29,043 bases of DNA from an uncultured Anaerolineales bacterium (GTDB lineage: Bacteria; Chloroflexota; Anaerolineae; B4-G1; SLSP01), in NCBI GenBank assembly GCA_964500755.1, contig CAZCPK010000002.1, positions 1 to 29,043 on the forward strand. Direction: 5' to 3'. Position numbers and translations under genes: made by a program. The notes under the pieces are model-generated. The model had not been told where the DNA came from and ran no database searches. It was given only the letters and a program-made list of their open reading frames with translations. Of the stretch, positions 4,027 through 22,131 are shown piece by piece; within the stretch, counting starts at the first letter, position 1, and every line of letters starts with the position of its first letter.

Positions 4027-4485
4027 TCACTCTCCTTCTTGTCGAATGCCAAAGGCGGGTACCGCTGAGGCGCGGATGCGGCGGGTAGCCGAGGAGATCC
4101 CCACCAGGCGCAGGAACCGCAGGGGGATCTCGATCTCGGCCTCCAGCCACACTGCCAGGTGGCGATCATCCGGACGTACCAGCCAAAGGCCCAGTAGCCG
4201 GGCTCGACCGCGACTGTAGGTTTCTAAGCGCTGCTGTGCCAGGTTAAAGGCCGTAGCACTGACGCCGACTTCCTGGCTGGCGTAGAAGGCGTCTCTGGAG
4301 ATGTGCTTCGCCGCATCTTGCACCGCCAGGTCCGCGGCATCCTGCCCGGCGCTTTGCGCAATCGCCACCGCTCCCAGGTCAAAAATTAGCCCCATCATCA
4401 ACAGGAAAACGGGGATGATGACCAACGTCTGCGTGAGCAGGCTCTGCCCTTCCTCGGACCGATACAGTTTGCGTAGTAATTGCAT
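4027..4485 (-). CDS. tadG: TadG-like pseudopilin (module 1)
   Basis: SEEG|QSLL class III signal, hydrophobic helix, FDLG..AIAQSAGQDAADLAVQDAA Tad N-terminal motif, TGATG coupling. Confidence 0.75.
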   Translation of the reverse strand: MQLLRKLYRSEEGQSLLTQTLVIIPVFLLMMGLIFDLGAVAIAQSAGQDAADLAVQDAAKHISRDAFYASQEVGVSATAFNLAQQRLETYSRGRARLLGLWLVRPDDRHLAVWLEAEIEIPLRFLRLVGISSATRRIRASAVPAFGIRQEGE

Positions 4486-4961
4486 CAGGGCGCCTCCCAG
4501 CGTGACTTGTAGGGATCGACCGCGAGAGTGTAGGTAGCCTCCAGCATCTTATCCGGTGATTGCACAAAGAGGGCGGCAAAGGGGACCCGACGTACGTCCA
4601 CCGGATAGCTGACGGTGCATTGGACCGCACTCCAGCGGTCCCAGGCGCCCAGCGGCGCCACGGTAATGACCGCTTTGGTAGGATCCAGGTGGCGGGCCTG
4701 CAGCGCCTCCGCGCCGGCAAGCCGCGCCTGCTGCAGACCGCGCTGCTGGTTGAGCGTACTCACGCCCTGTCGGGCGCAGGAGCGGGCGGCAGCCAGCACG
4801 GTCAGTTGGGCCGGGCGCACCTTGACAATGAACGCCGTCACGCCCAAGAACAAGGCCAACACCATCACAATGATGGGAAAGGTGGAAACGGTGCTTTGCC
4901 CGCTCTCGTTACAGAGTTGCGCCCAGAGTGTCTCATTCCCAGGTGCTGGGTGGGCCATCAT
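4485..4961 (-). CDS. tadE: TadE-like pseudopilin (module 1)
   Basis: NESG|QSTVSTF, TM helix, AAARSCARQG TadE motif. GGAGG RBS before the ATG at 4961. Confidence 0.8.
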   Translation of the reverse strand: MMAHPAPGNETLWAQLCNESGQSTVSTFPIIVMVLALFLGVTAFIVKVRPAQLTVLAAARSCARQGVSTLNQQRGLQQARLAGAEALQARHLDPTKAVITVAPLGAWDRWSAVQCTVSYPVDVRRVPFAALFVQSPDKMLEATYTLAVDPYKSRWEAP

Positions 4962-5352
4962 AGAATCCCTCCAGTCGTTGATGAGCATTCACGGTAATGC
5001 GAAACGGTTCCAGGAATCGGGCCGCCATAGAACGGCCTTGCCAGGTAAACGTCCAATGTGCCGTGGTGGCTCGCCGGGCCGGATCTGCGTGCACTTCGGC
5101 CTGGGTTCCAGGTAAGCGCCAGGTTTCACCGCCCTGCAAGGCCACCTGTTGCCCGGCGGCGAGGGTGGCGGTCCCCGCTCGCCGAGCAGACAGCTGTGCA
5201 AGGCTGGCTGTGCCCACCTGTTTGAAGCCCACCATGGCAATGACCACGATCAACGTGACCATAAACCAAAAGGGAATCTGGGTGATGAGCCAGGAGACGA
5301 GCTCAGCTTGTCCCCGTTCATCAGCCAGGTGCTTCAACAGTTTGGGGGCCAT
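4933..5352 (-). CDS. tadE: TadE-like pseudopilin (module 1)
   Basis: MAPKLLKHLADERG|QAELVSW, TM helix, LAQLSARRAG motif. Start trimmed to the ATG at 5352 after GGGAGG. Confidence 0.75.
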   Translation of the reverse strand: MAPKLLKHLADERGQAELVSWLITQIPFWFMVTLIVVIAMVGFKQVGTASLAQLSARRAGTATLAAGQQVALQGGETWRLPGTQAEVHADPARRATTAHWTFTWQGRSMAARFLEPFRITVNAHQRLEGFYDGPPSTWE

Positions 5353-5362
5353 CCTCCCTCTC

Positions 5363-5668
5363 TTACCCGCCCCAGTTACCGGCGGCTTCGATGTCGCGGC
5401 CCACGTTTTCGCCCAGATTGACGACCGCATACCAGATGATGCCCCCCACCACAAGCAGCGTCAGCGCCAGCACAATCGCTGTGCGGGCCAAGTTGCTGAC
5501 CAAGCCAGATTGCCCGGCGTTGTCGGTCACGGCACGGCCCACCACAGCGCAGACCTTTTGGCTGTATACCTCAATGTGGGGCCGGAACGGCTTACTGGCC
5601 GGGAGTAGGGCCTCCCGCAAGGCATGGGCCTTGGTTCGTACTTTACGACAAATTTCTGCGATTTGCAT
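5363..5668 (-). CDS. flp: Flp-like major pilin with 52-aa leader, lacking Glu+5 (module 1)
   Basis: RBS AAGGAG, DNAG|QSGLVSN, one hydrophobic helix, short amphipathic tail (about 49-aa mature), located after tadC. Confidence 0.7.
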   Translation of the reverse strand: MQIAEICRKVRTKAHALREALLPASKPFRPHIEVYSQKVCAVVGRAVTDNAGQSGLVSNLARTAIVLALTLLVVGGIIWYAVVNLGENVGRDIEAAGNWGG

Positions 5669-5680
5669 AGGTAGCTCCTT

Positions 5681-5700
5681 TTTGAGTTACTTTGAGTTAC
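5681..5700. repeat. Perfect 10-bp tandem direct repeat upstream of the flp RBS
   Basis: TTTGAGTTAC x2 (minus strand GTAACTCAAA GTAACTCAAA, then AAGGAG). Confidence 0.85.
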
Positions 5701-5705
5701 ACGAA

Positions 5706-6623
5706 CTATATGTATACGAAAAACATCCATAACGCTGGGCCCGCCACCAAGCCCATAGTTACCACGATAGACCCCACCACCACCGGCAATTCCATCCGAC
5801 TGGCATTCTGTACGCCCTGCTCAATCATCCGGCGCCGCAGACGTTCCTGAGCGGCCCGGGCTTGCACCCGCAGCGCGGGGGTAAGCGAACCGCCCCGCGA
5901 CTCTACCAATTGCAACTGCTGCAGGAACTCCGTCAGGGGCGCAAAGTCGTTGTGGCTGATGGTCGCCCCCACCGCGGCCTCGAAGGACGTCGTCACGTCG
6001 TAGGTGCGTAGGAGCCGGGCTATCTCCGTAATAAACGGTCCCCCGGGGCGACTGGTCAACTCCCGCAACGCTTGGGTCAGTGAGCGACCTGTGGAGACAA
6101 CTGACGCGAGCTCAGGCAACCGGAACGCCATCTCGACGGTCATCCGGTGCTGACGTTGTTGTACCGCGCTCTGTAGCTGCGCTGCTGGGCCGGTGTACCC
6201 GGCCAGCGCAGCCAGAACAGCGATAATGACAGCCAGGAGAAAAGGCGCTTCCAGGAGGAGGCTCAGGGTCGTACTGGCCAGCAGGCCGAGAACGCCGTAG
6301 AGCAACGCCTGGTAAATACAGGCAGCATGGTAACCACGCGCCGAGTAAAACGGCGCACTCGGATCCGGCGGCTCCAACTCACCCGGCGCCCAGAACCAGT
6401 TGGCTGCCTTGAGCAACTGTTCAAGGTTGCCCGTTTCGTCCTGATAGCCTACCGCCACCCGATAGGCCATCCCCGCCAGCGGATTCCCGTCCGGGATCCG
6501 GTCCCGTTTCGCCACCGTTCTTTTACCCCTGGTCTGGGGACGCGCCAAGGTGTACACAATGACGAAGATCGCTAATCCGCCCAATATTGCCGCAATCCAG
6601 ATCAACGTTTGGGTCGTTATCAT
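5706..6623 (-). CDS. tadC: TadC platform protein (T2SSF family), module 1
   Basis: N-terminal TM, two TMs, then the T2SSF domain (MAFRLPELASVVSTGRSLTQAL...GGSLTPALRVQAR...MELPVV) and a C-terminal TM. ATGA overlap with tadB. Confidence 0.85.
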   Translation of the reverse strand: MITTQTLIWIAAILGGLAIFVIVYTLARPQTRGKRTVAKRDRIPDGNPLAGMAYRVAVGYQDETGNLEQLLKAANWFWAPGELEPPDPSAPFYSARGYHAACIYQALLYGVLGLLASTTLSLLLEAPFLLAVIIAVLAALAGYTGPAAQLQSAVQQRQHRMTVEMAFRLPELASVVSTGRSLTQALRELTSRPGGPFITEIARLLRTYDVTTSFEAAVGATISHNDFAPLTEFLQQLQLVESRGGSLTPALRVQARAAQERLRRRMIEQGVQNASRMELPVVVGSIVVTMGLVAGPALWMFFVYI

Positions 6624-7591
6624 GCTGTTGACTCTCCTTCTGTATCTTCTATGCCGTATTCAGTGGGCACGCGGGAGAGGATCAAGCCGCGATTGGCCGT
6701 CTGCATGGCCGCTACGTACATGCCCACCGTAATAATGGCGCTAAACAACGACACCAGTATGCCCGCCGGCGTTCTGAAAAACTCGACGTTCATTGCGTGC
6801 TCTGTGCCCGCTACCATGAAATTGAGTCCGCGCACCATGCCCACCAACAGCCAGGGACCTAATGTGCCCACCAGGGCCTCGTTGCGCTTGGCCCGCTGCC
6901 GCGAGAGGGCCTCGTTGAACGTCTCAACCTGCTCGCGGGTGATATTGGCCTGATTGGCCAACGTTTGGCGCGCCTGAGCGCCTTGCTCTTCAGCGACAAG
7001 TAAGGCCGTCGCCAAACCATCAAAGATGGGGCTGCGCCGGCGATCAGCAATCCGCTGCAGCGCCTGACGTAGCGGGGTGCGGGTGCGTAATGCTCGCCAG
7101 ATCTCTTCAAAATCAGCGGCGACGCTGTCGGGCGCCGGGGCACCTTCGGGGCCGGCGCCTGACCCGGGACCGTAATCGGCCACAGCCTGCAGCGCCCCCG
7201 ACAACGTCGGTGTGATCTCCCAGGAGTTGACGATGATGTCCATCGCCCGGGCCAAAGCATGATGATACGTATTGATCCGCTGATTGCGCTGATCTTCCAA
7301 TTGCACCCAGTAGAAGAAATACCCCCCGATGAAAAACGGAATGAAAACCAGGACATTCGAGGTAAGTAGGGCGCTTACTGCGCCGAGGACGGCGCCGCGG
7401 ATCGCGCCCTGCAGGAGGAACTCGGGGGCCTCCACGTCAAACTGTGCCTGGTTAAGTCGCACCTGGATCCCCTTTGTCCACGTCCTGGCCGGCGCCCGGC
7501 GAAGATGCGCCTTGGGGATCGCCAGAGCCGATACAATACTAAACACTCCCAAACCGCCCACCGCCGCCAAACTGAGTACTAAAGCATTCAT
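6620..7591 (-). CDS. tadB: TadB platform protein (T2SSF family), module 1
   Basis: TM segments plus ARAMDIIVNSWEITPTLSGAL...FDGLATALLVAEEQGAQARQTL, directly downstream of cpaF. Confidence 0.85.
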   Translation of the reverse strand: MNALVLSLAAVGGLGVFSIVSALAIPKAHLRRAPARTWTKGIQVRLNQAQFDVEAPEFLLQGAIRGAVLGAVSALLTSNVLVFIPFFIGGYFFYWVQLEDQRNQRINTYHHALARAMDIIVNSWEITPTLSGALQAVADYGPGSGAGPEGAPAPDSVAADFEEIWRALRTRTPLRQALQRIADRRRSPIFDGLATALLVAEEQGAQARQTLANQANITREQVETFNEALSRQRAKRNEALVGTLGPWLLVGMVRGLNFMVAGTEHAMNVEFFRTPAGILVSLFSAIITVGMYVAAMQTANRGLILSRVPTEYGIEDTEGESTA

Positions 7592-7597
7592 ATCTTT

Positions 7598-8998
7598 CTA
7601 CCTCCTGTGACCTGCTGGTTGGGGAGCCTTGCTTAGCTCTACGACGTCGCGCTCAAAACTGAAGCCCGGCACCCGCGCCTCCAGCAGTTCCACGCTGTGC
7701 GGATACATCTCAAACTGGGCTACCTGTCCATCACGCGGTGACTTGAAAATCGGTTCCACGACTACATTCTTGCCTTCCAGGCGCCGGATCTCGCCCACCC
7801 CGGCGACATAACGCAAGCCGCTCTGCTCGCGCCTGAGATGTACGATGAAATGCGTCGCCGAGACGATCTCCTTGCGCACCTCCTCCGGCGCCAGGTCGCG
7901 GCCCATGCGGTACATGGTCACCATCCGGTCCACGGTCTCCCGCACGCTGTTGGCGTGGACGGTGAACAACGTACCGTCGTGCCCGGTGTTGCAGGCAGTC
8001 AGAATATCGACCATCTCCCCGCCCCGGGCCTCACCGAGAATGATGCGCGTGGGCCGTTGGCGCAGCGCGTTGCGGATCAGTTGATCCATGCCGATCTCGT
8101 CAATGCCCTCGGCCGCGTGGCGCACGTAGGACATGGACCAGTCTGCTAAATGCTCCAGTTGCAATTCTGGGGTGTCCTCGATGGTCACCACCCGGTCGCT
8201 TTCAGGAAAGTCCCGGCTAATGGCCTGCAGGAACGTCGTCTTGCCGGTACCCGTGCCGCCCGCGACCACCAGCGTGCGGTGAGCCTGTGCGACGGCGCGG
8301 AAGAAGTTGCGCAAGGTCGGCGTGATGGTGCCCAACTCGATCAACTCGTCCAGATCCATGGCCACCGGTCGGAACCGGCGAATCGTGACCTGAATGTCCG
8401 TGCCGGCCAGGGGGGGGATCTGCACAAAGAGCCGCGAGCCATCCGGCAAACGTGCATCCTGGTAGGGATTCTGATTATTGACTGGATACCCGTGGCCCGC
8501 CTCGATCTTGCGATTGAAGAAAGAGCGCGCAAACTCCGGGGAGTGGAAGCCCGTAATCTGCTCTTTGCGACCACCGGCGTAGATAACAAAGCCACGATCG
8601 AAGTTATTGAGGATCACTTCCTCTACATCGTCATCTTTCATGTAGGGGGATAACGGCCCCCAGCCCAGCACCTCGTCGACGATGCGCCGGGCTAACGCCT
8701 CGGGTTCGCCATCCAGTAGCGGTACGCCCTCCTTGGGCGCGGTGTGGTTGTGCTGCTTGATCATCTGCAGCGCCACGGTTTTCACCTGATCCTCGACCTG
8801 CGCCGTCGGATGCTCCATCTCCTCAGCGTCTAACATACGGTGCTGTTGGATACGGCGCCGCACGGCCTCTACCACGTCGCGGAAGACGTCCGTCTGCGTC
8901 TCTCCCGTGGTCAGGGCTGCGGCCCAGGGTTGATCGTCGTCAGCATACCCTTCAAAGTCCGCGTAGGGATTGCCATAAGGTAGTTGTTCATCACGCAT
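7598..8998 (-). CDS. cpaF: CpaF/TadA pilus secretion ATPase, module 1
   Basis: LGWGPLSPYM.DDDVEEV, Walker A GGTGTGKTT, Asp box TIEDTPEL, Walker B RQRPTRIILGEARG, His box NTGHDG..TVHANS. Confidence 0.95.
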   Translation of the reverse strand: MRDEQLPYGNPYADFEGYADDDQPWAAALTTGETQTDVFRDVVEAVRRRIQQHRMLDAEEMEHPTAQVEDQVKTVALQMIKQHNHTAPKEGVPLLDGEPEALARRIVDEVLGWGPLSPYMKDDDVEEVILNNFDRGFVIYAGGRKEQITGFHSPEFARSFFNRKIEAGHGYPVNNQNPYQDARLPDGSRLFVQIPPLAGTDIQVTIRRFRPVAMDLDELIELGTITPTLRNFFRAVAQAHRTLVVAGGTGTGKTTFLQAISRDFPESDRVVTIEDTPELQLEHLADWSMSYVRHAAEGIDEIGMDQLIRNALRQRPTRIILGEARGGEMVDILTACNTGHDGTLFTVHANSVRETVDRMVTMYRMGRDLAPEEVRKEIVSATHFIVHLRREQSGLRYVAGVGEIRRLEGKNVVVEPIFKSPRDGQVAQFEMYPHSVELLEARVPGFSFERDVVELSKAPQPAGHRR

Positions 8999-9010
8999 GG
9001 TAAAACTCCT

Positions 9011-10456
9011 TTATTTTCCAAAGAGGACACCGTCTATTTTCTGCTTAAAGCCTTTTTTCTTTTCGGGCCGCGCCAGACCAGGATAGAACATACCGGCCAG
9101 GGCGATGAGATTATTGGCCAACGCTGTATCTGGAGCGGAGAGCACGATGGGATTAGCATTATTTATGGCGTCGTGAGCCACGTGGGCATTGAACGGTAAC
9201 GTCATTACCAACGGCAGGGGATCCAGCACGTCTACTATATCGCCTTCTGTCCACCCGAAGGTTTCATCGAAGGCCGTAATCACCAGGCTGAACTTGTCCA
9301 ATGAGCCGCCCATCTGGTGTGTCAACGGATCCAAAGCATGGGCGGTATCCAGAATCGCCGTGCGGATCGGCGGGACCGGCACCAATACTTGGTCCGCTTT
9401 TTCCAACGCGGCGCGATGGAAGGGCCGCGTGAAATCTTGCCCCAGGTCTATCACCACGAACGTGGCGCGTTGCCTGACTTGCTTGATGATCTCGCAGGCG
9501 AGGTTATAGAGCAGGCCCATATTTTGAAATTCCTGCGCCGCTGCCTGCCCCGTATCCGTCAAGCCCGGCAGCAATTGCAGATGTGATTCGCTTTCCTTCC
9601 AATTCATCAGCACCCGATTGAGTTCGAGAGCGTTGATAGCCTCGTTTCCGCGCTTGGGATATGCATTCGAAGCGCGCAGGACCAGCGAATGCAAGTCATT
9701 GCCGATCATCGGCATTTCAAACCGTTCGTGCTCAGCGTACTCAGTGGTAAATCCCAGGACCGTATGGCAGTCACCTTTGGTCATATCAAAATCCAATAAC
9801 ACGGTGCGCTGAGAACCCAGATCCATGTGGGACAACGCCACGGCCAGGTTGGTCGCGATGGTGGTCCGTGTCGAGCCGCCGCCTTTGGGCACCCAGATAG
9901 CGATCGTTTTACGCTCGTAGGAGAGATCGGCTGCTCCGGTCATGGCTTGAGTATGGTGCTGCACGCGCCCCGCAGCGCGATCTCGCCAGGCTTGATTTAC
10001 CGCCTCCTCCGCTTTACCCAGAAAGGCCGCGACGGAAGCGGAATTGATAGGTACGGCAATCTTGCCGACGGCCCCATTGCTGATCATCTCCCGGCCCAGG
10101 TCCGACCGGTCCGGCATCATCCCTATGACCGGGATTGGTTTCTGGGTATACGTCAGCAGCTCCTGGATGATACCGTGGTGATACCCTTCCAGAAGCGGAT
10201 TGAGCAACACCAGATCGGTCTCTTGATTTTGAGCATCGTCCAGCACCCGCTGTGCGTGTTGTTGCGCCCCAATGATGCGCCAGGGGCGTCCCGGTAGTCC
10301 TTCGTCCTCAATACGTTGCCTGTGACTCGTCAAGCCCTCTCGCAAGCGCTCCAGGTTGGCATAATTGCGATAGCCAACGACCAGCTTGAGTATCTTATCG
10401 TCCTTTGGCTTAGGACGATTGTAGACGGTCTTTTTGTCACCGTTGTTGTTGGGCAT
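9011..10456 (-). CDS. cpaE: CpaE/TadZ-like receiver plus MinD/ParA-type ATPase, module 1
   Basis: N-terminal receiver-like domain (DLVLL.P.L), C-terminal IAIWVPKGGGSTRTTIATNLAVAL, VLLDFD, FVVIDLG. It lies between cpaB and cpaF. Confidence 0.85.
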   Translation of the reverse strand: MPNNNGDKKTVYNRPKPKDDKILKLVVGYRNYANLERLREGLTSHRQRIEDEGLPGRPWRIIGAQQHAQRVLDDAQNQETDLVLLNPLLEGYHHGIIQELLTYTQKPIPVIGMMPDRSDLGREMISNGAVGKIAVPINSASVAAFLGKAEEAVNQAWRDRAAGRVQHHTQAMTGAADLSYERKTIAIWVPKGGGSTRTTIATNLAVALSHMDLGSQRTVLLDFDMTKGDCHTVLGFTTEYAEHERFEMPMIGNDLHSLVLRASNAYPKRGNEAINALELNRVLMNWKESESHLQLLPGLTDTGQAAAQEFQNMGLLYNLACEIIKQVRQRATFVVIDLGQDFTRPFHRAALEKADQVLVPVPPIRTAILDTAHALDPLTHQMGGSLDKFSLVITAFDETFGWTEGDIVDVLDPLPLVMTLPFNAHVAHDAINNANPIVLSAPDTALANNLIALAGMFYPGLARPEKKKGFKQKIDGVLFGK

Positions 10457-10459
10457 AGA

Positions 10460-11356
10460 TCACTCCTTGTCCTCAATAGTCTCTGGCTCCTCGATCTCGG
10501 GGCGATACTGAAAGAAACGCTTTTCAAAGTCTTGCCAGGTGATCCCGCCTGGATACTCCTCAAGTAGGCCCGGCTGATGTACCGCCAGAATCACGTCGCC
10601 GTTGTGTAGTAGGAAGCCCAGGACCTCAGCCTGCTCGCGAGTGACAGCTACGTAAAGCCGCTCTGTATCGCCATACATGACCTTCGGTTCTGCGCCCTCC
10701 TCGTTCGTTCCATAGCCACTGGCTGCTGAGGTGTTGATCTCTTCGCGCTCCACCCGCTCGACAGGAATGTTCTGCAGGACCAGCGTCGATAGGGGGAGGG
10801 GTAGGGTCACCGTGGCGGTGTCGCGAGCCTTTACGGTACCGGTCAGCGGTACGCCTCTCCAATCCATTTGCGGCGTGGGCGTGGGATGGCTCTGGATAAA
10901 CTCGGCGCGCACCGTACCTATGGAAACGACCAGATCCACTTCGTCGCCGGCGACCGGGATATTCCCGCCTGCGTCCGGACTAACAGGAATGGCCATCAGG
11001 ACCTTGTGCGTGCCGGTGATCAGATGAGTCAAGCGGGTCACGTATGCACCGGCCTCTTCGGTATCCACGTAGGCCTTGTAGAGCGGGCTGCCGGCCGGCA
11101 CGTCTGTCAACAACTTTGCGCCTACCGGGAAATTCTGTGGTAGGTAGATCCGCTGCTGAATCTGGGGACTGATCCCGTTCCACTCTTCGAGCCGGAACAT
11201 CTCCTGCTGAATGGCTAGGCCTCCGGGCAGGTCTTCCACCGCGACCGGCACCTGCACCGGGGGCGGGTTCAGCAAGCGCCCCGCAAAGAGCAGCGCGGCC
11301 ACCGCAATGACGGCCAACACAATTCCTACCAGTAACAACGGCTTGTTAATGTGCAT
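10460..11356 (-). CDS. cpaB: CpaB/RcpC pilus assembly protein (SAF domain), module 1
   Basis: N-terminal TM, VPVAVEDLPGG SAF start, MAIPV...GDEVDLVVS, LVLQNIPV, LYVAVTREQAEVL. Confidence 0.9.
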   Translation of the reverse strand: MHINKPLLLVGIVLAVIAVAALLFAGRLLNPPPVQVPVAVEDLPGGLAIQQEMFRLEEWNGISPQIQQRIYLPQNFPVGAKLLTDVPAGSPLYKAYVDTEEAGAYVTRLTHLITGTHKVLMAIPVSPDAGGNIPVAGDEVDLVVSIGTVRAEFIQSHPTPTPQMDWRGVPLTGTVKARDTATVTLPLPLSTLVLQNIPVERVEREEINTSAASGYGTNEEGAEPKVMYGDTERLYVAVTREQAEVLGFLLHNGDVILAVHQPGLLEEYPGGITWQDFEKRFFQYRPEIEEPETIEDKE

Positions 11357-12146
11357 CAGGTAAAACTCCTTTTCGATAGTTGAGATTGATTTGACTAAAC
11401 TGCTTGATGGTCGTCAGGGCGCCCGGATCCCCGGCTGCGTACGCTTCCAGCGCCGCGGCCCACCGAGATAAAAGCCCCGCGTGTTGGGGGAGCGGCGTAG
11501 TCTGGGCCAAGGTACGCAACGTTTCAGCGGCACGCTGCGCTTGTGCCGGACGCTGATCCACAGCTACCATACCGACCCGCGCCACGACGTCCGCGGCGTG
11601 TTGGGCATGGATGATTACCGCGTCAGGGAGTGGGGTGGGCGTAGGCAGCGGTGAAATAGCGGCTGCTGCCGAGTTAGATTGCGATGACGGCGCCGAGAGA
11701 TTGCTCACGGCCTCTCCTGAAGGAGACGCTAGCAAGGTCAAGACCAGCACCGCGGCTAAGCCCCAGACAGCCGCCAGAGGAATCGCCTGCCCCCATTGCA
11801 AACGACCGAGTAGCACCCCCAAGAATAATAGGGTGATCCCCACCGCAACGATTAGGGGTGCGTACATGCCAAAGGAAAAACAGAGATAGGTGAGCATCCA
11901 GACGTCGCCACCGGCCCATTGCTCCGTATGTAATCCGTACAGCCCCCAGGCAAAACTGAACACGCCCAGGACCAGATGCAGGAGCGGATACGTGGCCAGC
12001 AGTGCCGTGCTGATACTGACCAGCAACGCTATCCCTGACCAGAGCAGATAGACCTTGCGCCGGGTCAGATCCGTGTAGATCACGACCATGAGCAAGAGCG
12101 CGTGCATGCCCCACAACCAGAGAGGTAACTCCAAAGCAAAAAACAT
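11346..12146 (-). CDS. A24-type prepilin peptidase fused to a C-terminal soluble helical domain, module 1
   Basis: Candidate catalytic motifs YTDLTRRKV and WAGGDVWML in multi-TM context, then an S/A/PT linker and an about 90-aa helical tail. Confidence 0.7.
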   Translation of the reverse strand: MFFALELPLWLWGMHALLLMVVIYTDLTRRKVYLLWSGIALLVSISTALLATYPLLHLVLGVFSFAWGLYGLHTEQWAGGDVWMLTYLCFSFGMYAPLIVAVGITLLFLGVLLGRLQWGQAIPLAAVWGLAAVLVLTLLASPSGEAVSNLSAPSSQSNSAAAAISPLPTPTPLPDAVIIHAQHAADVVARVGMVAVDQRPAQAQRAAETLRTLAQTTPLPQHAGLLSRWAAALEAYAAGDPGALTTIKQFSQINLNYRKGVLPDAH

Positions 12147-13696
12147 CAGCGCTCCCTCCGTGCTGGGAACCAGGAAACCGTCCAGGACACGCTATTCGTC
12201 TGCAGGCCGGTCGTCTGTCCGGTTGCCGAGGCCTGCCAGGCGCCTCTGCACTGCGTGCCGAAATACGGATCTCCTGCTTCTGCAGCATCCAGGACAAGCT
12301 CACCGGCGGGATCGGCCTGCACGATGTACGTGGTTTCAGCAGCACAGATCAACGGCTCCCCCTCGTCGTCTGCCGGTGCATGTACCCGCACTTCTACCTG
12401 TTCCTGGGCCTGGAACGCGGACCCGCGTAGCACCTGCGGCGGTTGCCCCACGTCCGGCGCGTACCAGACGAGCCAGGGATGTTCCACTGTTAGCACTCCA
12501 GGATGCGGCGTGGGGGTGGGGCTCGCTGTAGGCGTGTTTGTAGGCGTCGGCGTTGCCGTAGGCGTGTTTGTCGGTGTCGGCGTATTCGTCGACGTTGCGG
12601 TAGGTGATGGCGTCGGTGTAGGCGTGGGCGTGAACGTTGCCAGGATCACCTCGCAGGTTTCCACGTCGAAGTCGTCGGCTCGCCAGCCGCACAGCACCTC
12701 ACTGGCAAGTGTGGTGAAGCCTCCGCTATTGCTTTGATGCACGGCCATCACCCGATCCTCCGCCTCAGGCACCACATAACCGCCAACTTGAGAGCGCGGT
12801 CCCGGATCCGGGGGGCTGTCCGTATGGGTCGCGTAGCGCCCCCAGGCCTCTTGCAGGAGTCGCCATACGCTGCCCCAGGGGCCGAGATCAAACACCGCGC
12901 CGCCCATATCCCGGACGACCGGGTGTCCTTCCGGGTCGCGCACCTGGATCGTCAAGGCCGGGATGCGCCTGAAGACCTGGAGATACTGGACAGTGAACTG
13001 CTGCCAATTTCCCGAGGTTCGCACCTTTTTGATGTGCCCGATGTGAAAGGAGGTCGGATATTCCCCGCTGGGCACCGTCTGAGTGCTGTAGATACAGTTA
13101 TTGCCATTGGTGTCACAACGCGATTTATACGCCGTGCGGGTCGAAGCGTCATAGCGCACCGTGACGATAAACCATTGATTGATCTGGCTGCCGCTCAGGT
13201 CATCGCCCTGCATCCCAGTGATGCGGCTGTAGGGCGCAACGATAGGAGTCATATTCGACGGACAGTAGGAGGGATGCTCAAAATATCTCCCGTGGTAGGG
13301 CTGCGTTCCAAAATAGAAGCCCATACCCCACCCCTGGAACCCCATCGTCCACTTGATCTTCCACCGGACGTAAAAGTCCTCGCCCTCCGGCGGGAGAATG
13401 TCGTTGGTATAGATGGTCGGCGCGGTACGCCTATTACTATTGAAATGAATGCCGTCACCCTGCTGGTTGATGGAGCCCCTCACGCTGGTAGTACCATTGT
13501 GCAAACTGCAATTCGTGTACGACGTGGGACTAGGCACCCGCGTCCATTGCCCATCCTGATAGCCACCGCGAAAGTCGATCGCATACCAGGGCTCCCACTC
13601 CGGCCCAGGCGGCTCCGGCAGCGCCAGCGGGCGGGCCTGCGCGGTCGAGGTAAGCAGCAGGAGTCCAAAGAGTACGACAATCCCCCAGCGTCTCAT
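12146..13696 (-). CDS. Secreted multidomain adhesin-like protein (ConA/LamG-like beta-sandwich, Ig-like, PT repeats; about 516 aa)
   Basis: The start at 13696 has a TGATG overlap. Signal peptide MRRWGIVVLFGLLLL..AQA, NQWFIVTVRYDA..PTSFHIG lectin-like pattern, LTIQVRDPEGHPV, long (PT)n tract, C-terminal beta domain. Confidence 0.75.
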   Translation of the reverse strand: MRRWGIVVLFGLLLLTSTAQARPLALPEPPGPEWEPWYAIDFRGGYQDGQWTRVPSPTSYTNCSLHNGTTSVRGSINQQGDGIHFNSNRRTAPTIYTNDILPPEGEDFYVRWKIKWTMGFQGWGMGFYFGTQPYHGRYFEHPSYCPSNMTPIVAPYSRITGMQGDDLSGSQINQWFIVTVRYDASTRTAYKSRCDTNGNNCIYSTQTVPSGEYPTSFHIGHIKKVRTSGNWQQFTVQYLQVFRRIPALTIQVRDPEGHPVVRDMGGAVFDLGPWGSVWRLLQEAWGRYATHTDSPPDPGPRSQVGGYVVPEAEDRVMAVHQSNSGGFTTLASEVLCGWRADDFDVETCEVILATFTPTPTPTPSPTATSTNTPTPTNTPTATPTPTNTPTASPTPTPHPGVLTVEHPWLVWYAPDVGQPPQVLRGSAFQAQEQVEVRVHAPADDEGEPLICAAETTYIVQADPAGELVLDAAEAGDPYFGTQCRGAWQASATGQTTGLQTNSVSWTVSWFPARRER

Positions 13697-14295
13697 CAGG
13701 GCACATTCTCCACGGTGAGTTGCGCCGTGAAGGTGAAGCCCGTCATCGAGAAGATCTCCACCAGGTAGATGCCTGGCGTCACGTAGGGCGACTCGGGCGT
13801 CCAGGTCGCCGTCAACGGCCCGCCGGTCGGCACCGGGTGAAAGGGGCCTTGTACGTTCTGGCCCCATTGATTCTCACCCCAGAACACCAGATCCACGTCG
13901 GCGGCCTGGGGGTACTCGTTCACCCTCGCCTGGATGGTAGCGGTGATGGGAAACCCCAGGTAGACGTCGCTGCCGTAGGAAAGCGTGAGCACGTAGGGCT
14001 GTCCCAACGACAACACGCACTGGTCGCGGGCCGTGACGTCGTTGGTCGTGTAGCAGACAGCGGGTAACGGCTCCGGTGCCGGGCAGAGCTCGATCTCCGT
14101 TTTCCATACCAACGGCAGGTAAAAGCGGAAAAGAAGATCCTCATGTTCATTCGTCACCCTATGTTCATTTGTCACACTTGTGGGCGCCGGTGAGATCGCA
14201 GTATCCGCGGCCTCTGTGACCTGGCTGCTTACCACTACCAACAGGCCCAGGCCCAACCCGGTAATGAGCAATGGGAGTAAGAGTTTCCGGGTCAT
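13696..14295 (-). CDS. Secreted protein with FYLPLVWK motif (about 199 aa)
   Basis: The start at 14295 has an ATGA overlap. Signal peptide, VTNEHR/VTNEHE duplication, YLPLV motif, three Cys and a beta-rich C-terminal domain. Confidence 0.8.
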   Translation of the reverse strand: MTRKLLLPLLITGLGLGLLVVVSSQVTEAADTAISPAPTSVTNEHRVTNEHEDLLFRFYLPLVWKTEIELCPAPEPLPAVCYTTNDVTARDQCVLSLGQPYVLTLSYGSDVYLGFPITATIQARVNEYPQAADVDLVFWGENQWGQNVQGPFHPVPTGGPLTATWTPESPYVTPGIYLVEIFSMTGFTFTAQLTVENVP

Positions 14296-14552
14296 CTCTC
14301 GCGCTCCGCGATTTCGAAGGTATGCAACAAGAGCTGCCAGATCACTTGGTAGATTTCCCGTAGTTTTATGGTGTCTTGCTCCAACTTGTCTGCCGCACGA
14401 TGTAGAGCCTGCGCCAAACGCTGACACGGGGGTGCTGGATCGAGAGGCGAAACCTGACGATAGAGACAGTACGCTAGACGCAAGGATTTTATCTGTGAGG
14501 ATACCGGCTGGCTATGACCAAGATGTAGCCACGATGGAGTGTTCACATTCAT
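14292..14552 (-). CDS. Small helical hypothetical protein (86 aa)
   Basis: Fills the gap exactly: it starts 3 nt after the upstream stop and overlaps the next gene by ATGA. No motif recognised. Confidence 0.55.
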   Translation of the reverse strand: MNVNTPSWLHLGHSQPVSSQIKSLRLAYCLYRQVSPLDPAPPCQRLAQALHRAADKLEQDTIKLREIYQVIWQLLLHTFEIAERER

Positions 14553-14554
14553 AG

Positions 14555-14821
14555 TTAATTAGCTTCCTTTTCTGTTGTCCGGCCCAAACCCTGCTCCGTC
14601 AGGTCTGCACGCCAGGGATTATGACGCTGATTACCCAGCGCCTGCATTCGTTCACAAAAAGCCAACACACTCGCGCGCTGGATCAGCCAGTCGCGACCCA
14701 CTTTCTGCGCCGTGATACGGCCCTGGCTGGCCAGTCTACGCATATAGGTAACAGAGCACTCGGTGACCTCTGCGGCCTCCTGGGTGGATATCCACCCTTC
14801 GACAATCGGTCCTTCAGACAT
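14555..14821 (-). CDS. Excisionase-like HTH_17/MerR-type DNA-binding protein
   Basis: WISTQEAAEVTECSVTYMRRLASQGRITAQKVGRDWLI is the classic HTH_17 signature. RBS GAGGAAG before the ATG at 14821. Confidence 0.85.
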   Translation of the reverse strand: MSEGPIVEGWISTQEAAEVTECSVTYMRRLASQGRITAQKVGRDWLIQRASVLAFCERMQALGNQRHNPWRADLTEQGLGRTTEKEAN

Positions 14822-15410
14822 GTGCTTCCTCACTGGCTATCTTCTCAATCCACAAACCATCACTCAGATCCTGGATCTTGGCCCGATTCTGCAACGTAGC
14901 CCGCCAGTTAAAACGGTTATACAAAGACCCGCCTACGTAACACATCTTCCAGCGCTCAAACTCACGCAGCGCGTGCGTGATGTGCGTCGGCAATCGTTGT
15001 CTGCGGGCCGGCCCTATGAGAAAAAGCGGAGCGTGTCTTTCAATTAGATCCCAGAGCAGGGAGAATAGCTGTTCGCGGCGGTCGACGTGCCTCAAATTGC
15101 CATTGCCTTCCCAGATAGTAGCCTGGGTTTGCAGATCCCAACCGCTGCGCCACAGTTGTAAGCGAAAAGCGACCGGATATGACCAGATATGTACCGGCTC
15201 GTGAGCGATCAATCGCTCATGCACCAGAGGGAGGGCTTCATCCAAAGGCACTTTGTTGGCAGGGTGCGAGCAGGGTTCTGGTATTCCATAGGTCACGCAG
15301 CAGCGTTTATGCTGTAGCCAGTCCCGCAATACTTGATAGCATTGCTCAATTCGTTGTTCGCGTCTCGTTTCCTCGTAGGCCCGAAAGACCAGCATCTGAG
15401 GCACCTTCAT
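14814..15410 (-). CDS. Hypothetical cytoplasmic protein (198 aa)
   Basis: Coupled at both ends (ATGA upstream, 8-nt overlap downstream). No TM and no confident family. Confidence 0.7.
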   Translation of the reverse strand: MKVPQMLVFRAYEETRREQRIEQCYQVLRDWLQHKRCCVTYGIPEPCSHPANKVPLDEALPLVHERLIAHEPVHIWSYPVAFRLQLWRSGWDLQTQATIWEGNGNLRHVDRREQLFSLLWDLIERHAPLFLIGPARRQRLPTHITHALREFERWKMCYVGGSLYNRFNWRATLQNRAKIQDLSDGLWIEKIASEEAHV

Positions 15411-15964
15411 GGGTCAGTCTCCCGCGGTGCAGAAGCAGTAAAGGAGATCTCCAGGACGAGATCCTTGTGATCGTAGTCGTTGTCGCAGTCCCAGTGGGTC
15501 TCCTGAGCGGACGCTCCTCTCACAATCAGCGGCGCGGACGCGTTCTCGCGTGCCTGCCAGTCCCAGGCGTAGAAGATGGGATGGGGCGTGATAATCGAAC
15601 CGTAAGTGTCGGCGTAGAGGAAGAGATTCAGGCGCTGTCCGGCCGAGATCGGCACCGTGACGTCCAGACGGGGCGTACGGGCGGTCAGCTCCCCGAGGGT
15701 GCCACCGGGCGCGTCGCACTCGCCGTCGGCGTCCCGATCGTAGCAGTAGCACAACCACTGCCATGCCGCCTGAGTTTCCCCCCGCTGCGCCTGCACCCGA
15801 TAGCCGCCATCGTCCGGCGCAACCAGGCGCGGGGGTCGCGCTGGCCCCTGGACGATCAGCGGCAAGTACATCGTATGCTGCGGTGTGTCCGTCTCCTGGG
15901 CCGCCGCCGGCACTACAAAGATAGTGACTGTACACAACACCATAAGCATAAGCAGTTTTCGCAC
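15407..15964 (-). CDS. Secreted protein with MYLPLIVQ motif and Cys/Asp-rich loops (185 aa)
   Basis: GTG start after GGGAGG, signal peptide ending AAA-QE, YLPLI motif, CYCYDRDADGECD and WDCDNDYDHKDLVL acidic motifs. Confidence 0.8.
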   Translation of the reverse strand: MRKLLMLMVLCTVTIFVVPAAAQETDTPQHTMYLPLIVQGPARPPRLVAPDDGGYRVQAQRGETQAAWQWLCYCYDRDADGECDAPGGTLGELTARTPRLDVTVPISAGQRLNLFLYADTYGSIITPHPIFYAWDWQARENASAPLIVRGASAQETHWDCDNDYDHKDLVLEISFTASAPRETDP

Positions 15965-15976
15965 ACAAACCTCCCT

Positions 15977-16507
15977 TCAGTGCACCGTAGTAACGCTCGC
16001 CGCAGCGAAGACGTGGATCGGCACCGCCTGATTCCCATTCACCCACCCGTAGAGCACGGGTTGGACCGCGAACTCCAGGTAGACGCCAATGGCCGGGTCA
16101 TCCGGCGCCCAATCGCCGGCCCGCATTCCCGCCCGCGCCACCGGCGGGTAATCAGCGTACACCGCTGCGGTATCCGTGGCGTGGACGCGCACGTCGTAGG
16201 AGATGGCCGTGAGATCCGCTCGGTGGGCCAGCGTCTCCTGGAGCGCGTCAACGGTATCCTGGTAAGCCACCGCGGCATCCAAAGAGAGCGCGCCGGTGGC
16301 CATGTACCCCGCGTAATCCCGACTGTGAGCCAGCCCGGACAGCGCGGCGCTCTCCGCAACCCGATAGCCCCAGGTGCGATACGCCCACAGGCGAGCCAGA
16401 TCCACGAGTCCCGCAATAAGTAAGGTGAGTATCAACGTGCCCAATATTGTCCAGATAGCAGCCTGACCCGCTTCGTCGTTAGGGAGTCGCATATGTGTTT
16501 TTTGCAT
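15977..16507 (-). CDS. tadG: TadG-like pseudopilin (module 2)
   Basis: DEAG|QAAIW, TM, GLVDLARL..YRVAESAALSG Tad motif, C-terminal IHVFAAASV. Confidence 0.8.
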   Translation of the reverse strand: MQKTHMRLPNDEAGQAAIWTILGTLILTLLIAGLVDLARLWAYRTWGYRVAESAALSGLAHSRDYAGYMATGALSLDAAVAYQDTVDALQETLAHRADLTAISYDVRVHATDTAAVYADYPPVARAGMRAGDWAPDDPAIGVYLEFAVQPVLYGWVNGNQAVPIHVFAAASVTTVH

Positions 16508-16514
16508 ATCAACT

Positions 16515-16808
16515 TTAGGGCAGCGGTATCGCATTGCGTAACGTGAACATTCCCAGCAACATCAGAATTAGGCACACTTGAGCCATCGCTATTGATTCAA
16601 ATCCACCTATTCTTCGCAAACTGATTCCATTAAGAAGAGCCACTGACCAGATCATTGGTGTGCTGAGCAAGCTGAATCCTCTCCACAGAGGATCAACAAC
16701 CCAACCCAGGATGATGCCTGCAACTAAAAGCACTAGACCCAAGTAAAATAAACCTTGATATAGTTCTATCTCACGGATACTGGTTATCATTCGCTGTAAT
16801 CTGTTCAT
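16515..16808 (-). CDS. Small AT-rich 3-TM membrane protein inserted between tadE and tadG
   Basis: Three hydrophobic segments, ATGA overlap with tadE, about 40% GC in a hand-counted 60-nt line (16561-16620) versus about 75% at 16921-16980. Confidence 0.7.
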   Translation of the reverse strand: MNRLQRMITSIREIELYQGLFYLGLVLLVAGIILGWVVDPLWRGFSLLSTPMIWSVALLNGISLRRIGGFESIAMAQVCLILMLLGMFTLRNAIPLP

Positions 16809-17215
16809 GGATATCTCTCCATCACTTCATAGTGGATAGTCTGCAATGTCCGCGGAGCGGTAGGTACAAAAGGAATCTGGGCCTGAAAAGGCACGCTGCA
16901 GGTCACCGAGAACCTGCTCCCGAATGAGAGCGTGGGGGGATCGACCGCGCCGCCCCAGGCGTCGCGCACGGCGCAGGTCACGCTGGCGCCCGCGCTGCCC
17001 AGCAGCGAGTTGTCCACGCTGGTCTGCACGCCGGCCAGCGCCGCGCCCCAATCGTGCGGCGCCAGCGCGATCTGCCGGGCCGCCACCGCCGTGCCGTTCT
17101 CCAGCGCGTGCCGCGCAGAGTAACCTTGCGCCAGGCTTAGGCCCCCAAACAGTAGGATGAGTAATAGCAATAGCGTGATCATCAATTCCACCGTCGCTTG
17201 ACCTCTTTCTGTCAT
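16805..17215 (-). CDS. tadE: TadE pseudopilin (module 2)
   Basis: Canonical ERG|QATVELMITL, TM, ALENGTAVAARQIAL. Confidence 0.9.
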   Translation of the reverse strand: MTERGQATVELMITLLLLLILLFGGLSLAQGYSARHALENGTAVAARQIALAPHDWGAALAGVQTSVDNSLLGSAGASVTCAVRDAWGGAVDPPTLSFGSRFSVTCSVPFQAQIPFVPTAPRTLQTIHYEVMERYP

Positions 17216-17817
17216 AGCCAGGCTGCTCCCAATACATAGCCCACCGTCCCCAAAAATAGCCAGGGTAATAATGGGGCTACGGTCGCCGTCTCTGCCGAGG
17301 GACGCTCCCCCCGTTTCATGCGGGCCAGGGTGTTTTGTAGCGCGATCGGGGACGCTAGGCCATAGCGCCGTACAATTACCACTAGGCTGCCCAGCAGCAT
17401 GGCGCCAAAGAGAGCGCCAGATAACCCTAGCGTGGGCCAGAGGGCAGTGAGGACCATGAAGCTCTGCGCGTCAGCGCCGCCCCATACCCCCCAGCGAAAC
17501 AGGAGAATGGCAAAGCTCCACATTAAGAGCAGCACCGTGGTGGAAATATTCACTTGTACTCCTAATCCAAGCGCAGCGAGGATAAAAACCCCGACGACAG
17601 GAGATTCGGAATACACCACACTCACTAATACCAGAAACATTGCTATCCCGGCCGGCCACCAGGCGTCTGCAGGCGGCGCGACAACTCGCCAGATTCCTGC
17701 CAAGATCGTAGGTATAGTAATGAGCCAATGCGCAACACGCTGCTTGCGCAGATCCTGATAGGCAACTATCGCCAACCAGATCAAGATCCCCAGAATGATT
17801 TTGGTATCATAGCGCAT
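17212..17817 (-). CDS. cpaA: Prepilin peptidase CpaA/TadV (A24 family), module 2
   Basis: AYQDLRKQRVAHWL and WGGADAQSF aspartate motifs, multi-TM, C-terminal APLLPWLFLG. Confidence 0.9.
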   Translation of the reverse strand: MRYDTKIILGILIWLAIVAYQDLRKQRVAHWLITIPTILAGIWRVVAPPADAWWPAGIAMFLVLVSVVYSESPVVGVFILAALGLGVQVNISTTVLLLMWSFAILLFRWGVWGGADAQSFMVLTALWPTLGLSGALFGAMLLGSLVVIVRRYGLASPIALQNTLARMKRGERPSAETATVAPLLPWLFLGTVGYVLGAAWL

Positions 17818-17950
17818 GATTGTATTCCAATAATTTCTCCCTGATGCCCTGAGTCAACATCAGCAATGCCCCACCCACGATCAAGACGATGATCGAAATC
17901 ACGATTATGTACTCCACCAAAGTTTGGCCACGCGTGTCCTGTAGTAACAT
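17807..17950 (-). CDS. flp: Canonical Flp pilin, 47 aa (not in ORF track)
   Basis: Manual translation MLLQDTRG|QTLVEYIIVISIIVLIVGGALLMLTQGIREKLLEYNHAL*. GGAGG RBS, and the stop overlaps the cpaA start by 11 nt. Confidence 0.92.
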   Translation of the reverse strand: MLLQDTRGQTLVEYIIVISIIVLIVGGALLMLTQGIREKLLEYNHAL

Positions 17951-17967
17951 CTTCTTTTTGCCTCCCC

Positions 17968-17999
17968 GGGTGCGGGACGGCAGGTAATTTCCCGCACCC
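17968..17999. other. 10-bp GC-rich hairpin between the two module-2 flp genes
   Basis: GGGTGCGGGA-(12 nt)-TCCCGCACCC, directly before the RBS of the 47-aa pilin, with no U-tract on the minus strand. Confidence 0.7.
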
Positions 18000-18023
18000 T
18001 ACGCTACTGTGATTTCAGTGCTC

Positions 18024-18284
18024 TTAGAGACTGTTGATCCAACTGTCCACTTCTTGCGCTCGGCCTACGGTGGTGTTGACCAAATTGAGGACCATCCCCC
18101 CCACAATGACGAATATGAGAATGATGATTCCCAACCATTCGACAAAATCGGTTCCCCGATTATCAGCCAGGAGTGAATACCTCAGTCGCTGGGGTTTCAT
18201 CACTCCTGACCATACATTTACTGCTCGCTTGGGCTTCAATCGTGACCATACGTCTACTGCAAATTTTTGAATCTTCTTAAACAT
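18024..18284 (-). CDS. flp: Flp pilin with 44-aa internally duplicated leader (module 2)
   Basis: GGAGG RBS before the ATG at 18284, DNRG|TDFVEW, hydrophobic helix, about 42-aa mature protein. Confidence 0.85.
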   Translation of the reverse strand: MFKKIQKFAVDVWSRLKPKRAVNVWSGVMKPQRLRYSLLADNRGTDFVEWLGIIILIFVIVGGMVLNLVNTTVGRAQEVDSWINSL

Positions 18285-18330
18285 TTGTACCTCCCGAATA
18301 TAGTCGTGCACAGGTGAACGATTTGCTGAA

Positions 18331-19131
18331 TTACCTGCCCAGCGGCGCCGGACCCACACCTGCCAGTGTGTCCAGAAAGGCTTGTACGGCTGGGCTGAGT
18401 AACAACACTAATAAGGGCGACAATAAAGCCGCCAGTAGCGGAATGATCAAGCGAGTAGGTGCACTCTCCACTTGCTCACCCAGCTCCTGCTGTAATTCTG
18501 CGGTCATCTCAGCTGCTACTTCACGTAAAGCAGTGGATAGCCCGCTCGCACCGGCCTGCGCTGCACGGACTCGGGCCAGCAGGTGCCGGAGTTCTTGGCT
18601 GGATAGGTCTGCTGCTACTTTTTTCAACGCCGGGATAGGGCCTTGTGCGTATATGTTCGAACGCTGCTTGCGCAGCCGTTGCCAGAGAATGCCGTCCGGA
18701 TTTTCGTCTATCACGTGCAACAACGCCGCGCCTGGAGTAGGTACCAGTCCCAGCTGCAAACGCAATGAGGCTACCAGGTTGACGAGCTCCCGCTGGATCT
18801 GCCGCTGCCCGGCCTGGATACGTTGCCGCTTCCACAACAATGGCAGCAACCCGCCCAAAGCCCCGAGGAGACGCCCAGGGCCGTAGAACAAGGTAAGGCT
18901 AAGGGTTAGTCCGGCAAGTGCCCCCAACGCCATCCAGGGCGCCAGGGGAGGGATGTCAAACAGTTCCTCAGCTGATGGAGGCTCCTCTTCCGGTTTGTCC
19001 AACAAGACTTTGTAGATACGCTGGCGAGATATGCTGGCCCAGACGGCTTGTAGCCAATCGCTAAGGGCCAGGGTCAACAGCCCGACACCGGCAGCCGCCA
19101 ATCCGGCAGGGAGCAGTAGCCAGGTGGTCAT
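18331..19131 (-). CDS. tadC: TadC-like platform protein, module 2
   Basis: Start at 19131 (ATGA overlap), TMs, ELVNLVASLRLQLG...GLSTALREVAAEM...PTRLIIPL T2SSF pattern. Confidence 0.8.
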   Translation of the reverse strand: MTTWLLLPAGLAAAGVGLLTLALSDWLQAVWASISRQRIYKVLLDKPEEEPPSAEELFDIPPLAPWMALGALAGLTLSLTLFYGPGRLLGALGGLLPLLWKRQRIQAGQRQIQRELVNLVASLRLQLGLVPTPGAALLHVIDENPDGILWQRLRKQRSNIYAQGPIPALKKVAADLSSQELRHLLARVRAAQAGASGLSTALREVAAEMTAELQQELGEQVESAPTRLIIPLLAALLSPLLVLLLSPAVQAFLDTLAGVGPAPLGR

Positions 19132-20009: not shown

Positions 20010-20037
20010 TAAATTAAACACTCCTTATGACAACAAA

Positions 20038-20181
20038 ACACCCACCTGCTGGTCGGATCCAGGTTTCTGGATCTTGGCAGTGTGACCCCGGAGCACCGGG
20101 GTGCGACTGGACCAGATAGGTGGGTGTGACGATAAATCCACGTAAATGGCGGGGCCTCAATCTTTGAGGCGCGGCCTTTAC
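20038..20181. ncRNA. Candidate structured cis-element (three-way junction plus long hairpin) in the cpaF2-tadB2 intergenic region
   Basis: Outer stems ACACCCACCT/AGGTGGGTGT and CTGGTC/GACCAG enclose GATCCAG/CTGGATC and CCCCGG/CCGGGG hairpins. Second hairpin GTAAA.GGC.GCCTCAA/TTGAGGC.GCC.TTTAC at 20142-20181. No Rfam family recognised. Confidence 0.5.
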
Positions 20182-20331
20182 AACTTTACCGTGAGACCCG
20201 GCCCCCTCTCAGGGACGATTATTTGATTTGATAGTACTGCTACACTCCAAACTCTGTTTCTAACACCCGAATAATCATCTGTAACGCTCGCTTGACCGTC
20301 GCGGCGATGCGGCGAGCACGGTTTTCACTAC

Positions 20332-22124: not shown

Positions 22125-22131
22125 ACTGATG

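Follow-up and report, generated by a model that had tools for sequence, protein, structure and literature searches.

The 29,043-nucleotide stretch of DNA analyzed here (the window; GenBank assembly GCA_964500755.1, contig CAZCPK010000002.1, positions 1 to 29,043 of the forward strand) comes from an uncultured Anaerolineales bacterium of a microbial mat and contains two sets of genes resembling those for Tad/Flp (type IVc) pili, designated module 1 and module 2 (Table 1). All of the relevant genes are located on the minus strand. Module 1 extends from 12146 down to 4027 and encodes, in this order, an A24-like prepilin peptidase, a CpaB-like SAF protein, a ParA/TadZ-like protein, a CpaF-type ATPase and the platform proteins TadB and TadC, followed by four proteins with class III signals: a Flp-like protein, the pseudopilins pp1 and pp2, and a TadG-like protein. 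All ten genes are intact. Module 2 extends from 24492 down to 15977 and, besides the genes in Table 1, includes one for a protein with three transmembrane segments. An earlier reading of the window (the sequence-only reading) proposed that the two modules use separate N-terminal codes, the module-2 pilins keeping a Glu at position +5 after the predicted cut (Glu+5, or Glu5) and the module-1 pilins lacking it. The six cleavage-site motifs on which that proposal was based are present in the sequence exactly as written, and the absence of Glu+5 from module 1 extends to its fourth gene, that of the TadG-like protein. In module 2, Glu+5 is kept by three of the four class III proteins, the exception being the TadG-like protein, whose ortholog in the same-genus genome G007 (DEAG↓QSTILAV; arrows mark predicted cuts) likewise lacks Glu; the G007 ortholog of Flp-a has kept it (TRG↓QNAVEW). 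Its Flp and TadE N-termini conform to the pattern G↓xxxxE with Y, W or L as the next residue, and module 2 is a divergent yet ordinary Tad set. As a whole, the data presented below lead us to favor the view that the Glu-less state of module 1 is a trait of its subfamily.

Table 1. Predicted genes of the two Tad-like modules in the window (cut-off for PF01478, 26.5 bits)
Feature	Module	Position	Strand	Remarks
Divergent A24-type prepilin peptidase	1	11346-12146	-	YTDL and GGDVWML Asp motifs; PF01478 16.3 bits
CpaB/RcpC-like SAF protein	1	10460-11356	-	SAF match
TadZ/CpaE-like ParA-type protein	1	9011-10456	-	AAA_31 match
TadA/CpaF-type ATPase	1	7598-8998	-	PF00437, E 1e-42
TadB platform paralog	1	6620-7591	-	PF00482 T2SSF over cut-off
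TadC platform paralog	1	5706-6623	-	PF00482 T2SSF over cut-off
Flp-like major-pilin candidate	1	5363-5668	-	101 aa; predicted cleavage NAG↓QSGLVSNLAR; Gly codon 5513-5515
Pseudopilin pp1	1	4933-5352	-	139 aa; ERG↓QAELVSW; Gly codon 5311-5313
Pseudopilin pp2	1	4485-4988	-	ESG↓QSTVSTF; Gly codon 4899-4901; probable start 4961; predicted TadE/TadG fold
TadG-like protein	1	4027-4485	-	EEG↓QSLLTQT; PF13400 24.2 bits, above cut-off
ParA/TadZ-like protein	2	23545-24492	-	Pfam match
CpaB/RcpC	2	22132-23229	-	Pfam match; RcpC 34.4 bits
TadA ATPase	2	20332-21633	-	Pfam match; closest solved structure CpaF, 111 bits
TadB	2	19128-20021	-	Pfam match
TadC	2	18331-19242	-	Pfam match
Flp pilin b	2	18024-18359	-	NRG↓TDFVEW; possible starts 18284 or 18200
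Flp pilin a	2	17807-17950	-	47 aa; TRG↓QTLVEY
A24-type prepilin peptidase	2	17212-17817	-	YQDL and GGADAQ Asp motifs; PF01478 25.4 bits
TadE pseudopilin	2	16805-17215	-	ERG↓QATVEL, canonical Glu+5; PF07811 34.7 bits
TadG/TadE-like protein	2	15977-16534	-	EAG↓QAAIWT, no Glu+5

The machinery of module 1 was compared with the Tad/Flp pili of Aggregatibacter (Flp1-TadV-TadA-G) and Caulobacter (Cpa; PilA filament, 8U1K), and of the monoderms Bifidobacterium breve and Micrococcus luteus. As in these systems, there is a CpaF-type ATPase, a pair of T2SSF paralogs (PF00482, 34.5 and 31.8 bits), a ParA-like TadZ, a CpaB/RcpC-like SAF protein and a stand-alone A24-like peptidase, and the gene for a tiny all-helical pilin is followed by TadE-like and TadG-like genes. 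The closest solved structures to the module-1 ATPase are those of CpaF (8rkd, 8rjf and 9e24, at about 203 bits; 8rkd, 203), and it forms a separate clade in the ATPase tree. The synteny of the TadZ-like and CpaB-like genes is kept in the loci L021-L025 and L031. The genome of the window, which is 89% complete, yielded no secretin, as in monoderm Tad pili; since both ATPases are also nearest to CpaF, modules 1 and 2 are monoderm-style Tad systems. Module 1 thus has the ATPase and the paired platform proteins of a Tad system, but its predicted N-termini lack two features that define such systems, the Flp motif G-x4-EY and the TadE motif G-x4-EF. Further differences from known Tad/Flp pili are a conserved 52-residue leader and an Arg at +10 in the pilin candidate, the replacement of Glu by Ser or Thr in both TadE-like proteins, an extra C-terminal domain on the peptidase, and a fixed group of accessory genes (for a ribbon-helix-helix protein, a bitopic protein, a Cys-rich secreted protein and a DUF192 protein). 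Module 1 resembles archaeal type IV pili, for example those of Methanococcus maripaludis (Epd) and Sulfolobus, in that Glu5 is frequently absent there, Gln occupies +1 (pyroglutamate in M. maripaludis) and helix packing is continuous and Tad-like (PMC4471445, PMC10710030). An archaeal origin was nevertheless rejected, because the motor is CpaF-like (GspE2, 2oap, 106 bits; FlaI, 100 bits) and the platform is split into two genes as in bacterial Tad systems; the pseudopilins are also predicted to have the bacterial TadE/TadG fold.

The Flp-like protein consists of a conserved leader of about 52 aa and a mature part predicted to be a 49-aa helix. No Pfam family, Flp_Fap included, matched it, and an atlas feature search with it gave sub-threshold leads only (0.84; DUF6133, Flp1_like). 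In its AlphaFold2 (AF2) model (mean predicted local distance difference test score, pLDDT, 66.6), helices span residues 2-21, 26-52 and 55-99, with a break at G52/Q53. The family is rare: 10 clusters were found among 5.8 billion proteins and, in a set of 1.84 billion, 31 representatives with E <= 1e-3. In the family alignments, none of the 31 representatives had Glu at +5 or an EY pair, so that the Flp motif appears never to be present in the major-pilin candidate of the module-1 subfamily. Two sub-clades can be distinguished: that of the window reads G↓x9(R/K), hydrophobic core, and an end in …DIEAAGNWG; the other reads G↓(L/M)SK, core, and an end in …QIESVPLDWG. Members of the former carry acidic residues at +3 (QADLTSS), +6 (QAELSEG, LDGTTES, QAETTEM) or +7 (QSVTTQE), and the Flp-like protein of the window and two close relatives have none in this N-terminal stretch (+1 to +9 in the window). 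Arg or Lys occupies +10 in most members of the subfamily, and could pair within the helix with the Glu at +6 or +7 in those having both; the Arg+10 of the window protein lacks an acidic partner.

The (L)VS motif that had been read as common to the module-1 cleavage sites occurs in two of the three and not in the third; it was rejected as a family signature, as relatives read QADLTS, QSVTTQE, LSKLA and so on. A shift of the acid to +3 as compensation was likewise rejected: it is common (QAELVSW of pp1, QADLTSS), but it is missing in the Flp-like protein of the window and in pp1 of the genome G011. The +3 Glu of pp1 may perhaps be the counterpart of Asp+2 in canonical G↓QDLVEW. The leader of the Flp-like protein (5516-5668) is predicted to form two helices and is conserved family-wide, with a PFRPYIE motif and a near-invariant Glu33. 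Pilin leaders are normally little conserved.

The pseudopilins pp1 and pp2 are paralogs (hhalign probability 96.4%, E 1.4e-9). No Pfam match was obtained for pp2 of the window, the ortholog in the metagenome contig L031 scoring 22.6 bits against PF07811 (cut-off, 22.9), and an hhalign comparison of the pp2 family with the single TadE sequence of module 2 was not significant (19% probability). The AF2 model of pp2 (pLDDT 79.2) has a helix from residue 22 onward and a three-stranded sheet. It matched TadE/TadG (PF07811/PF13400) clusters of the ESM Atlas at template modeling (TM) scores of 0.61-0.67, including clusters with 85-87% PF07811 members at TM 0.62-0.65 by query; a Foldseek search of the PDB gave no match at E <= 0.001. 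In the column before the conserved aromatic residue, pp2 has Thr (…ATF, …STF), where its deep homologs carry Glu (…VEF, …LEF, …LEW), and pp1 has Ser (…VSW, …TSW), where deep homologs again carry Glu (…MEW, …VEW). The Ser/Thr state holds for the window, the genomes G007, G002, G011 and G144, and about ten metagenome clusters (90% identity). Glu occupies the same column in deeper members (P0054, G↓LSEAVEF; P0055, G↓LSAILEF; L033, G↓QSPVLEW; P0065, G↓QANIMEW; L025, MERTVEW), and a pp2-profile search across the class found matches in 38 of 401 genomes, grading into ordinary TadE proteins (G↓xxxxE[FLVY]). This distribution indicates that Glu was lost once, within the subfamily, and that the Glu-less state has been kept since. 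In loci of the G026/G030 type (L025, 5153-5536; L037, 1006-1380), the pp1 homolog begins with MERTVEW or MHKVDW right after a stop codon, and thus looks leaderless, with a mature-type N-terminus at the start codon.

The TadG-like protein lacks Glu+5 in every ortholog aligned, its G13 and Q14 being invariant. One capping or anchoring subunit per system, such as GspK or those of the PilX/PilK type, normally lacks Glu5 (PMC10191384), and the comparison of these subunits with the TadG family (PF13400) explains the Glu-less TadG-like genes of both modules. Module 1 differs from the GspK/PilX/PilK-type tip pilins in that every one of its class III proteins, the major-pilin candidate included, is without Glu+5. 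A complex prediction for mature pp2, the TadG-like protein and pp1 returned a score of 0.01, that is, no answer, and carries no weight either way. Relative to G007, the ratio of nonsynonymous to synonymous substitutions (dN/dS) was 0.26 for the Flp-like gene, 0.15 for pp1, 0.09 for pp2, 0.11 for the TadG-like gene and 0.08 for the ATPase, values that are rough because dS exceeds 1 and is saturated. The frames were open. These ratios point to purifying selection on the four pilin-like genes and, together with the intact genes, indicate that the missing Glu is not a sign of decay.

Orthologous loci were found using the module-1 ATPase as a query. Its identity was 85-88% in G007 and G002, which belong to the same genus, 62-64% in G011, which has two copies, and 42-44% in G026, G030 and G040; the metagenome contigs L031 and L033 also carry a locus of this type. 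The gene order is kept throughout, including the downstream genes for the ribbon-helix-helix protein, the bitopic protein with a Pro/Thr-rich (PT) linker and the large Cys-rich secreted protein. Judged from these loci, module 1 represents a rare and patchily distributed Tad subfamily, found here in Anaerolineae-type genomes. Among five module-1 genomes, an ortholog of the module-2 ATPase was detected only in G007 (81-86% identity); G011 (95% complete), G026 (100%) and G030 (94%) yielded none. In G011, pp2 is already of the Thr type (G↓QNVAATF, G↓QSTTATF), and pp1 carries no Glu at +5 or +6.

One of the G011 copies, on contig C38 (L023), is informative as to how the arrangement in the window arose. 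There, the module-1-type CpaB gene is directly preceded by homologs (8425-11999; 37-56% identity) of the four-gene cassette that lies upstream of module 2 in the window (24496-29042; a large ATPase-like gene at 26805-29042, o376, o201 and o212), with neither module 2 nor an A24 gene in between. The 12146-24492 stretch of the window comprises module 2 and five further genes. It thus has the look of a genus-level insertion into a locus composed of the cassette and module 1, or of a stretch deleted in G011. Because this G011 copy lacks an A24 gene, its peptidase must be encoded at another locus.

Each module in the window has its own A24-like protein, as the sequence-only reading had it; the two are dissimilar (BLASTP E 0.029) and have two Asp motifs each, and both score below the PF01478 cut-off. 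Orthologs of the module-1 peptidase score above it (L031, 41.2 bits; L022, 30.1 bits). Three further, canonical A24 genes are present on other contigs of the genome (C458, C144 and C263). The module-1 peptidase also has a soluble C-terminal extension of about 125 residues (11346-11750) after a PT-rich linker, conserved in L031 and L022. We know of no such extension in TadV/CpaA-type peptidases.

Taken together, these results favor the reading that the window carries two divergent Tad sets, and that the Glu-less state of module 1 is a lineage trait of its subfamily rather than a response to the presence of module 2 in the same cell or operon; we put the probability of this at roughly two in three. 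The sequence-only reading was accordingly right in describing module 1 as a non-canonical, Tad-like set without Glu+5, and the trait is conserved in relatives. The system would consist of a dedicated A24 peptidase, CpaB, TadZ, TadA, TadB, TadC, a small Flp-like pilin, two TadE-fold paralogs, the TadG-like protein and the fixed accessory genes. Its class III proteins are probably cut after the near-invariant Gly by an A24 peptidase and then probably assembled by the motor and platform of the same module. By analogy with known filaments, loss of Glu is probably tolerated because helix packing of the Tad/archaeal type does not depend on a salt bridge between Glu5 and the N-terminus: the Glu5 of the Caulobacter Tad pilus (8U1K) neither forms a salt bridge between subunits nor contacts a neighbor, and packing there is archaeal-like (PMC10710030), and archaeal pilins often lack Glu5 (PMC10710030, PMC4471445). 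The N-terminal Gln may, in addition, cyclize to pyroglutamate, as in the archaeal case, and so remove the charge that Glu5 neutralizes elsewhere.

Several points weigh against this reading. Cleavage at the Gly, assembly and even the formation of a filament by module 1 are all predicted from sequence. Gln is likewise the first residue in module 2 and in the canonical Flps, so that pyroglutamate formation would not set one module apart from the other. The AF2 model of the Flp-like protein is only moderately confident, and the dN/dS values share the roughness of a saturated dS. G002, G007 and G000 are fragmented metagenome-assembled genomes, so that failure to find a module in them is weak evidence. 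Finally, in the Flp-like protein the hydrophobic core is separated from the Gly by ten residues of rather polar character and an Arg, and the conserved leader is unusually long, so that the protein could be a bitopic membrane protein that escapes cleavage.

The last point bears on what module 1 builds. That it produces a genuine bacterial Tad-type filament, with a major subunit devoid of an N-terminal acidic residue, bearing Arg+10 and made with a conserved leader of about 50 residues, is a tentative proposal to which we give somewhat less than even odds. According to the opposing view, the 101-aa Flp-like protein is an uncleaved bitopic component of the machine and any fiber would be a short pseudopilus of TadE-like proteins. 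The long leader with its PFRPYIE motif and near-invariant Glu33, the polar +1 to +9 segment with Arg/Lys+10 ahead of the core, and the absence of a Pfam Flp match speak for this view. However, the gene occupies the exact flp position, immediately ahead of those for the pseudopilins, the near-invariant Gly follows (D/E/N)xx as in the neighboring pseudopilins, the AF2 helix breaks at the predicted cut, the mature part is a single helix of about 45 residues like those of minimal Flp pilins, and leaders of up to 51 residues are known for pilins (PMC6916266). We therefore regard the bitopic alternative as unlikely.

The sequence-only reading had explained the missing Glu differently, as an insulating code: loss of Glu+5 and a private peptidase would keep module-1 subunits out of the module-2 (or a canonical) Tad machine, and vice versa. 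Cross-talk is a real problem for this cell, because the genome has at least three Tad-type motors (two on contig C2 and one on C101) and, on other contigs, canonical Flp genes (G↓QGLVEY, G↓QGLTEY; C27, C34 and C167) and a TadE gene (G↓QTLVEF). The dissimilar A24-like gene in each module would fit such a function, and in the Tad-like Kil system of Myxococcus xanthus different prepilin peptidases do serve different pilin subsets (PMC12075869). However, Glu-less pp1 and pp2 occur in both copies of G011, where module 2 was not found and one copy lacks an A24 gene of its own, and the leaders of both modules and of the canonical Flp genes of the genome end alike, in (D/E/N)xxG with Q as the next residue. 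Outer members of the subfamily keep Glu, even though 40 of 41 relatives have canonical CpaF-type ATPases, with or without module 1; the presence of Glu is thus graded within one type of machine. Furthermore, Glu5 is dispensable for processing by prepilin peptidase, and Glu5 mutants co-assemble with wild-type subunits (PMC4471445). A Glu-based code between the two modules is not supported by these data, and we consider insulation as the explanation quite improbable. Loss of Glu may still insulate module 1 from the canonical Tad system carried by nearly all relatives, and specificity may reside in other parts of the subunits and in the dedicated platform; no new principle of machine insulation is established here. 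As for the view that module 1 is a decaying, non-functional duplicate whose missing Glu residues are inactivating mutations, deeper homologs of pp1 and pp2 do carry Glu, a pattern that the sequence-only reading had named beforehand as refuting its own proposal and denoting decay, but the Ser/Thr state is kept clade-wide (G007, G002, G011, G144 and no fewer than ten clusters at 90% identity), synteny is conserved down to the accessory genes, and pseudogenization was rejected on the basis of the open frames and dN/dS of 0.09-0.26, at saturated dS, which leaves this view hardly credible.

The lineage-trait reading bears on the role assigned to Glu5, a residue described by reviews and the first Tad pilus structure paper as absolutely or nearly invariant among the type IV pilins of bacteria (PMC4471445, PMC10710030). 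In Tad pili this role is unclear, because Glu5 forms no salt bridge between the subunits of the Caulobacter filament. If module 1 does form a filament with an acid-free major subunit, the rule of an absolutely conserved Glu5 would fail for a whole bacterial subfamily, whose members, grading from Glu at +6 or +7 through Asp at +3 to no acid at all, would form a natural series for probing what the residue is for. To our knowledge, Glu5-less subunits have been recognized as caps, but not as a whole pilin set that includes the major subunit. Members in which Glu is shifted, replaced or absent are natural variants that bear on its part in docking, membrane extraction and charge neutralization. Pilin finders based on the motif G-x4-E[YF] miss such systems. 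In the Kil system, which we liken to module 1 by description only, several minor-pilin trios form the tip, and the major pilin KilP has all the features of bona fide Flps (PMC12075869).

Several neighboring genes were also noted. The genes for the bitopic PT-linker protein (2822-3613) and the Cys-rich secreted protein of about 520 aa (1308-2864) are conserved downstream of every module-1-type locus examined (L022, L025, L031), with 25-57% identity; neither product matched a Pfam family above the cut-off, and either is a candidate cargo, adhesin or component that crosses the envelope. A DUF192 gene (880-1263, 45.6 bits) ends the module-1 block and is kept at the same place in G011 (L022, 14564-14872). 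The start of the 573-aa open reading frame (ORF) at 12146-13867 is probably the internal Met codon at 13696, which opens a signal peptide, and the apparent gap upstream of it is filled by a 243-aa ORF (13696-14427) without a family; no homolog of either ORF was found in the other module-1 loci compared. The sequence-only reading took the two machines to be co-expressed; scans for promoters and terminators in the region between them came out at chance level, and no RNA sequencing run was listed as containing window sequence. Also between the modules is a gene of the excisionase-type HTH_17 family (14555-14833, 39.1 bits), and in the metagenome contig L031 a tyrosine integrase gene (12825-13745) directly follows the module-1-type block; together these genes hint that Tad-like blocks travel on mobile elements. 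One microbial-mat DNA sequencing run contains 0.80 of the sampled window words.

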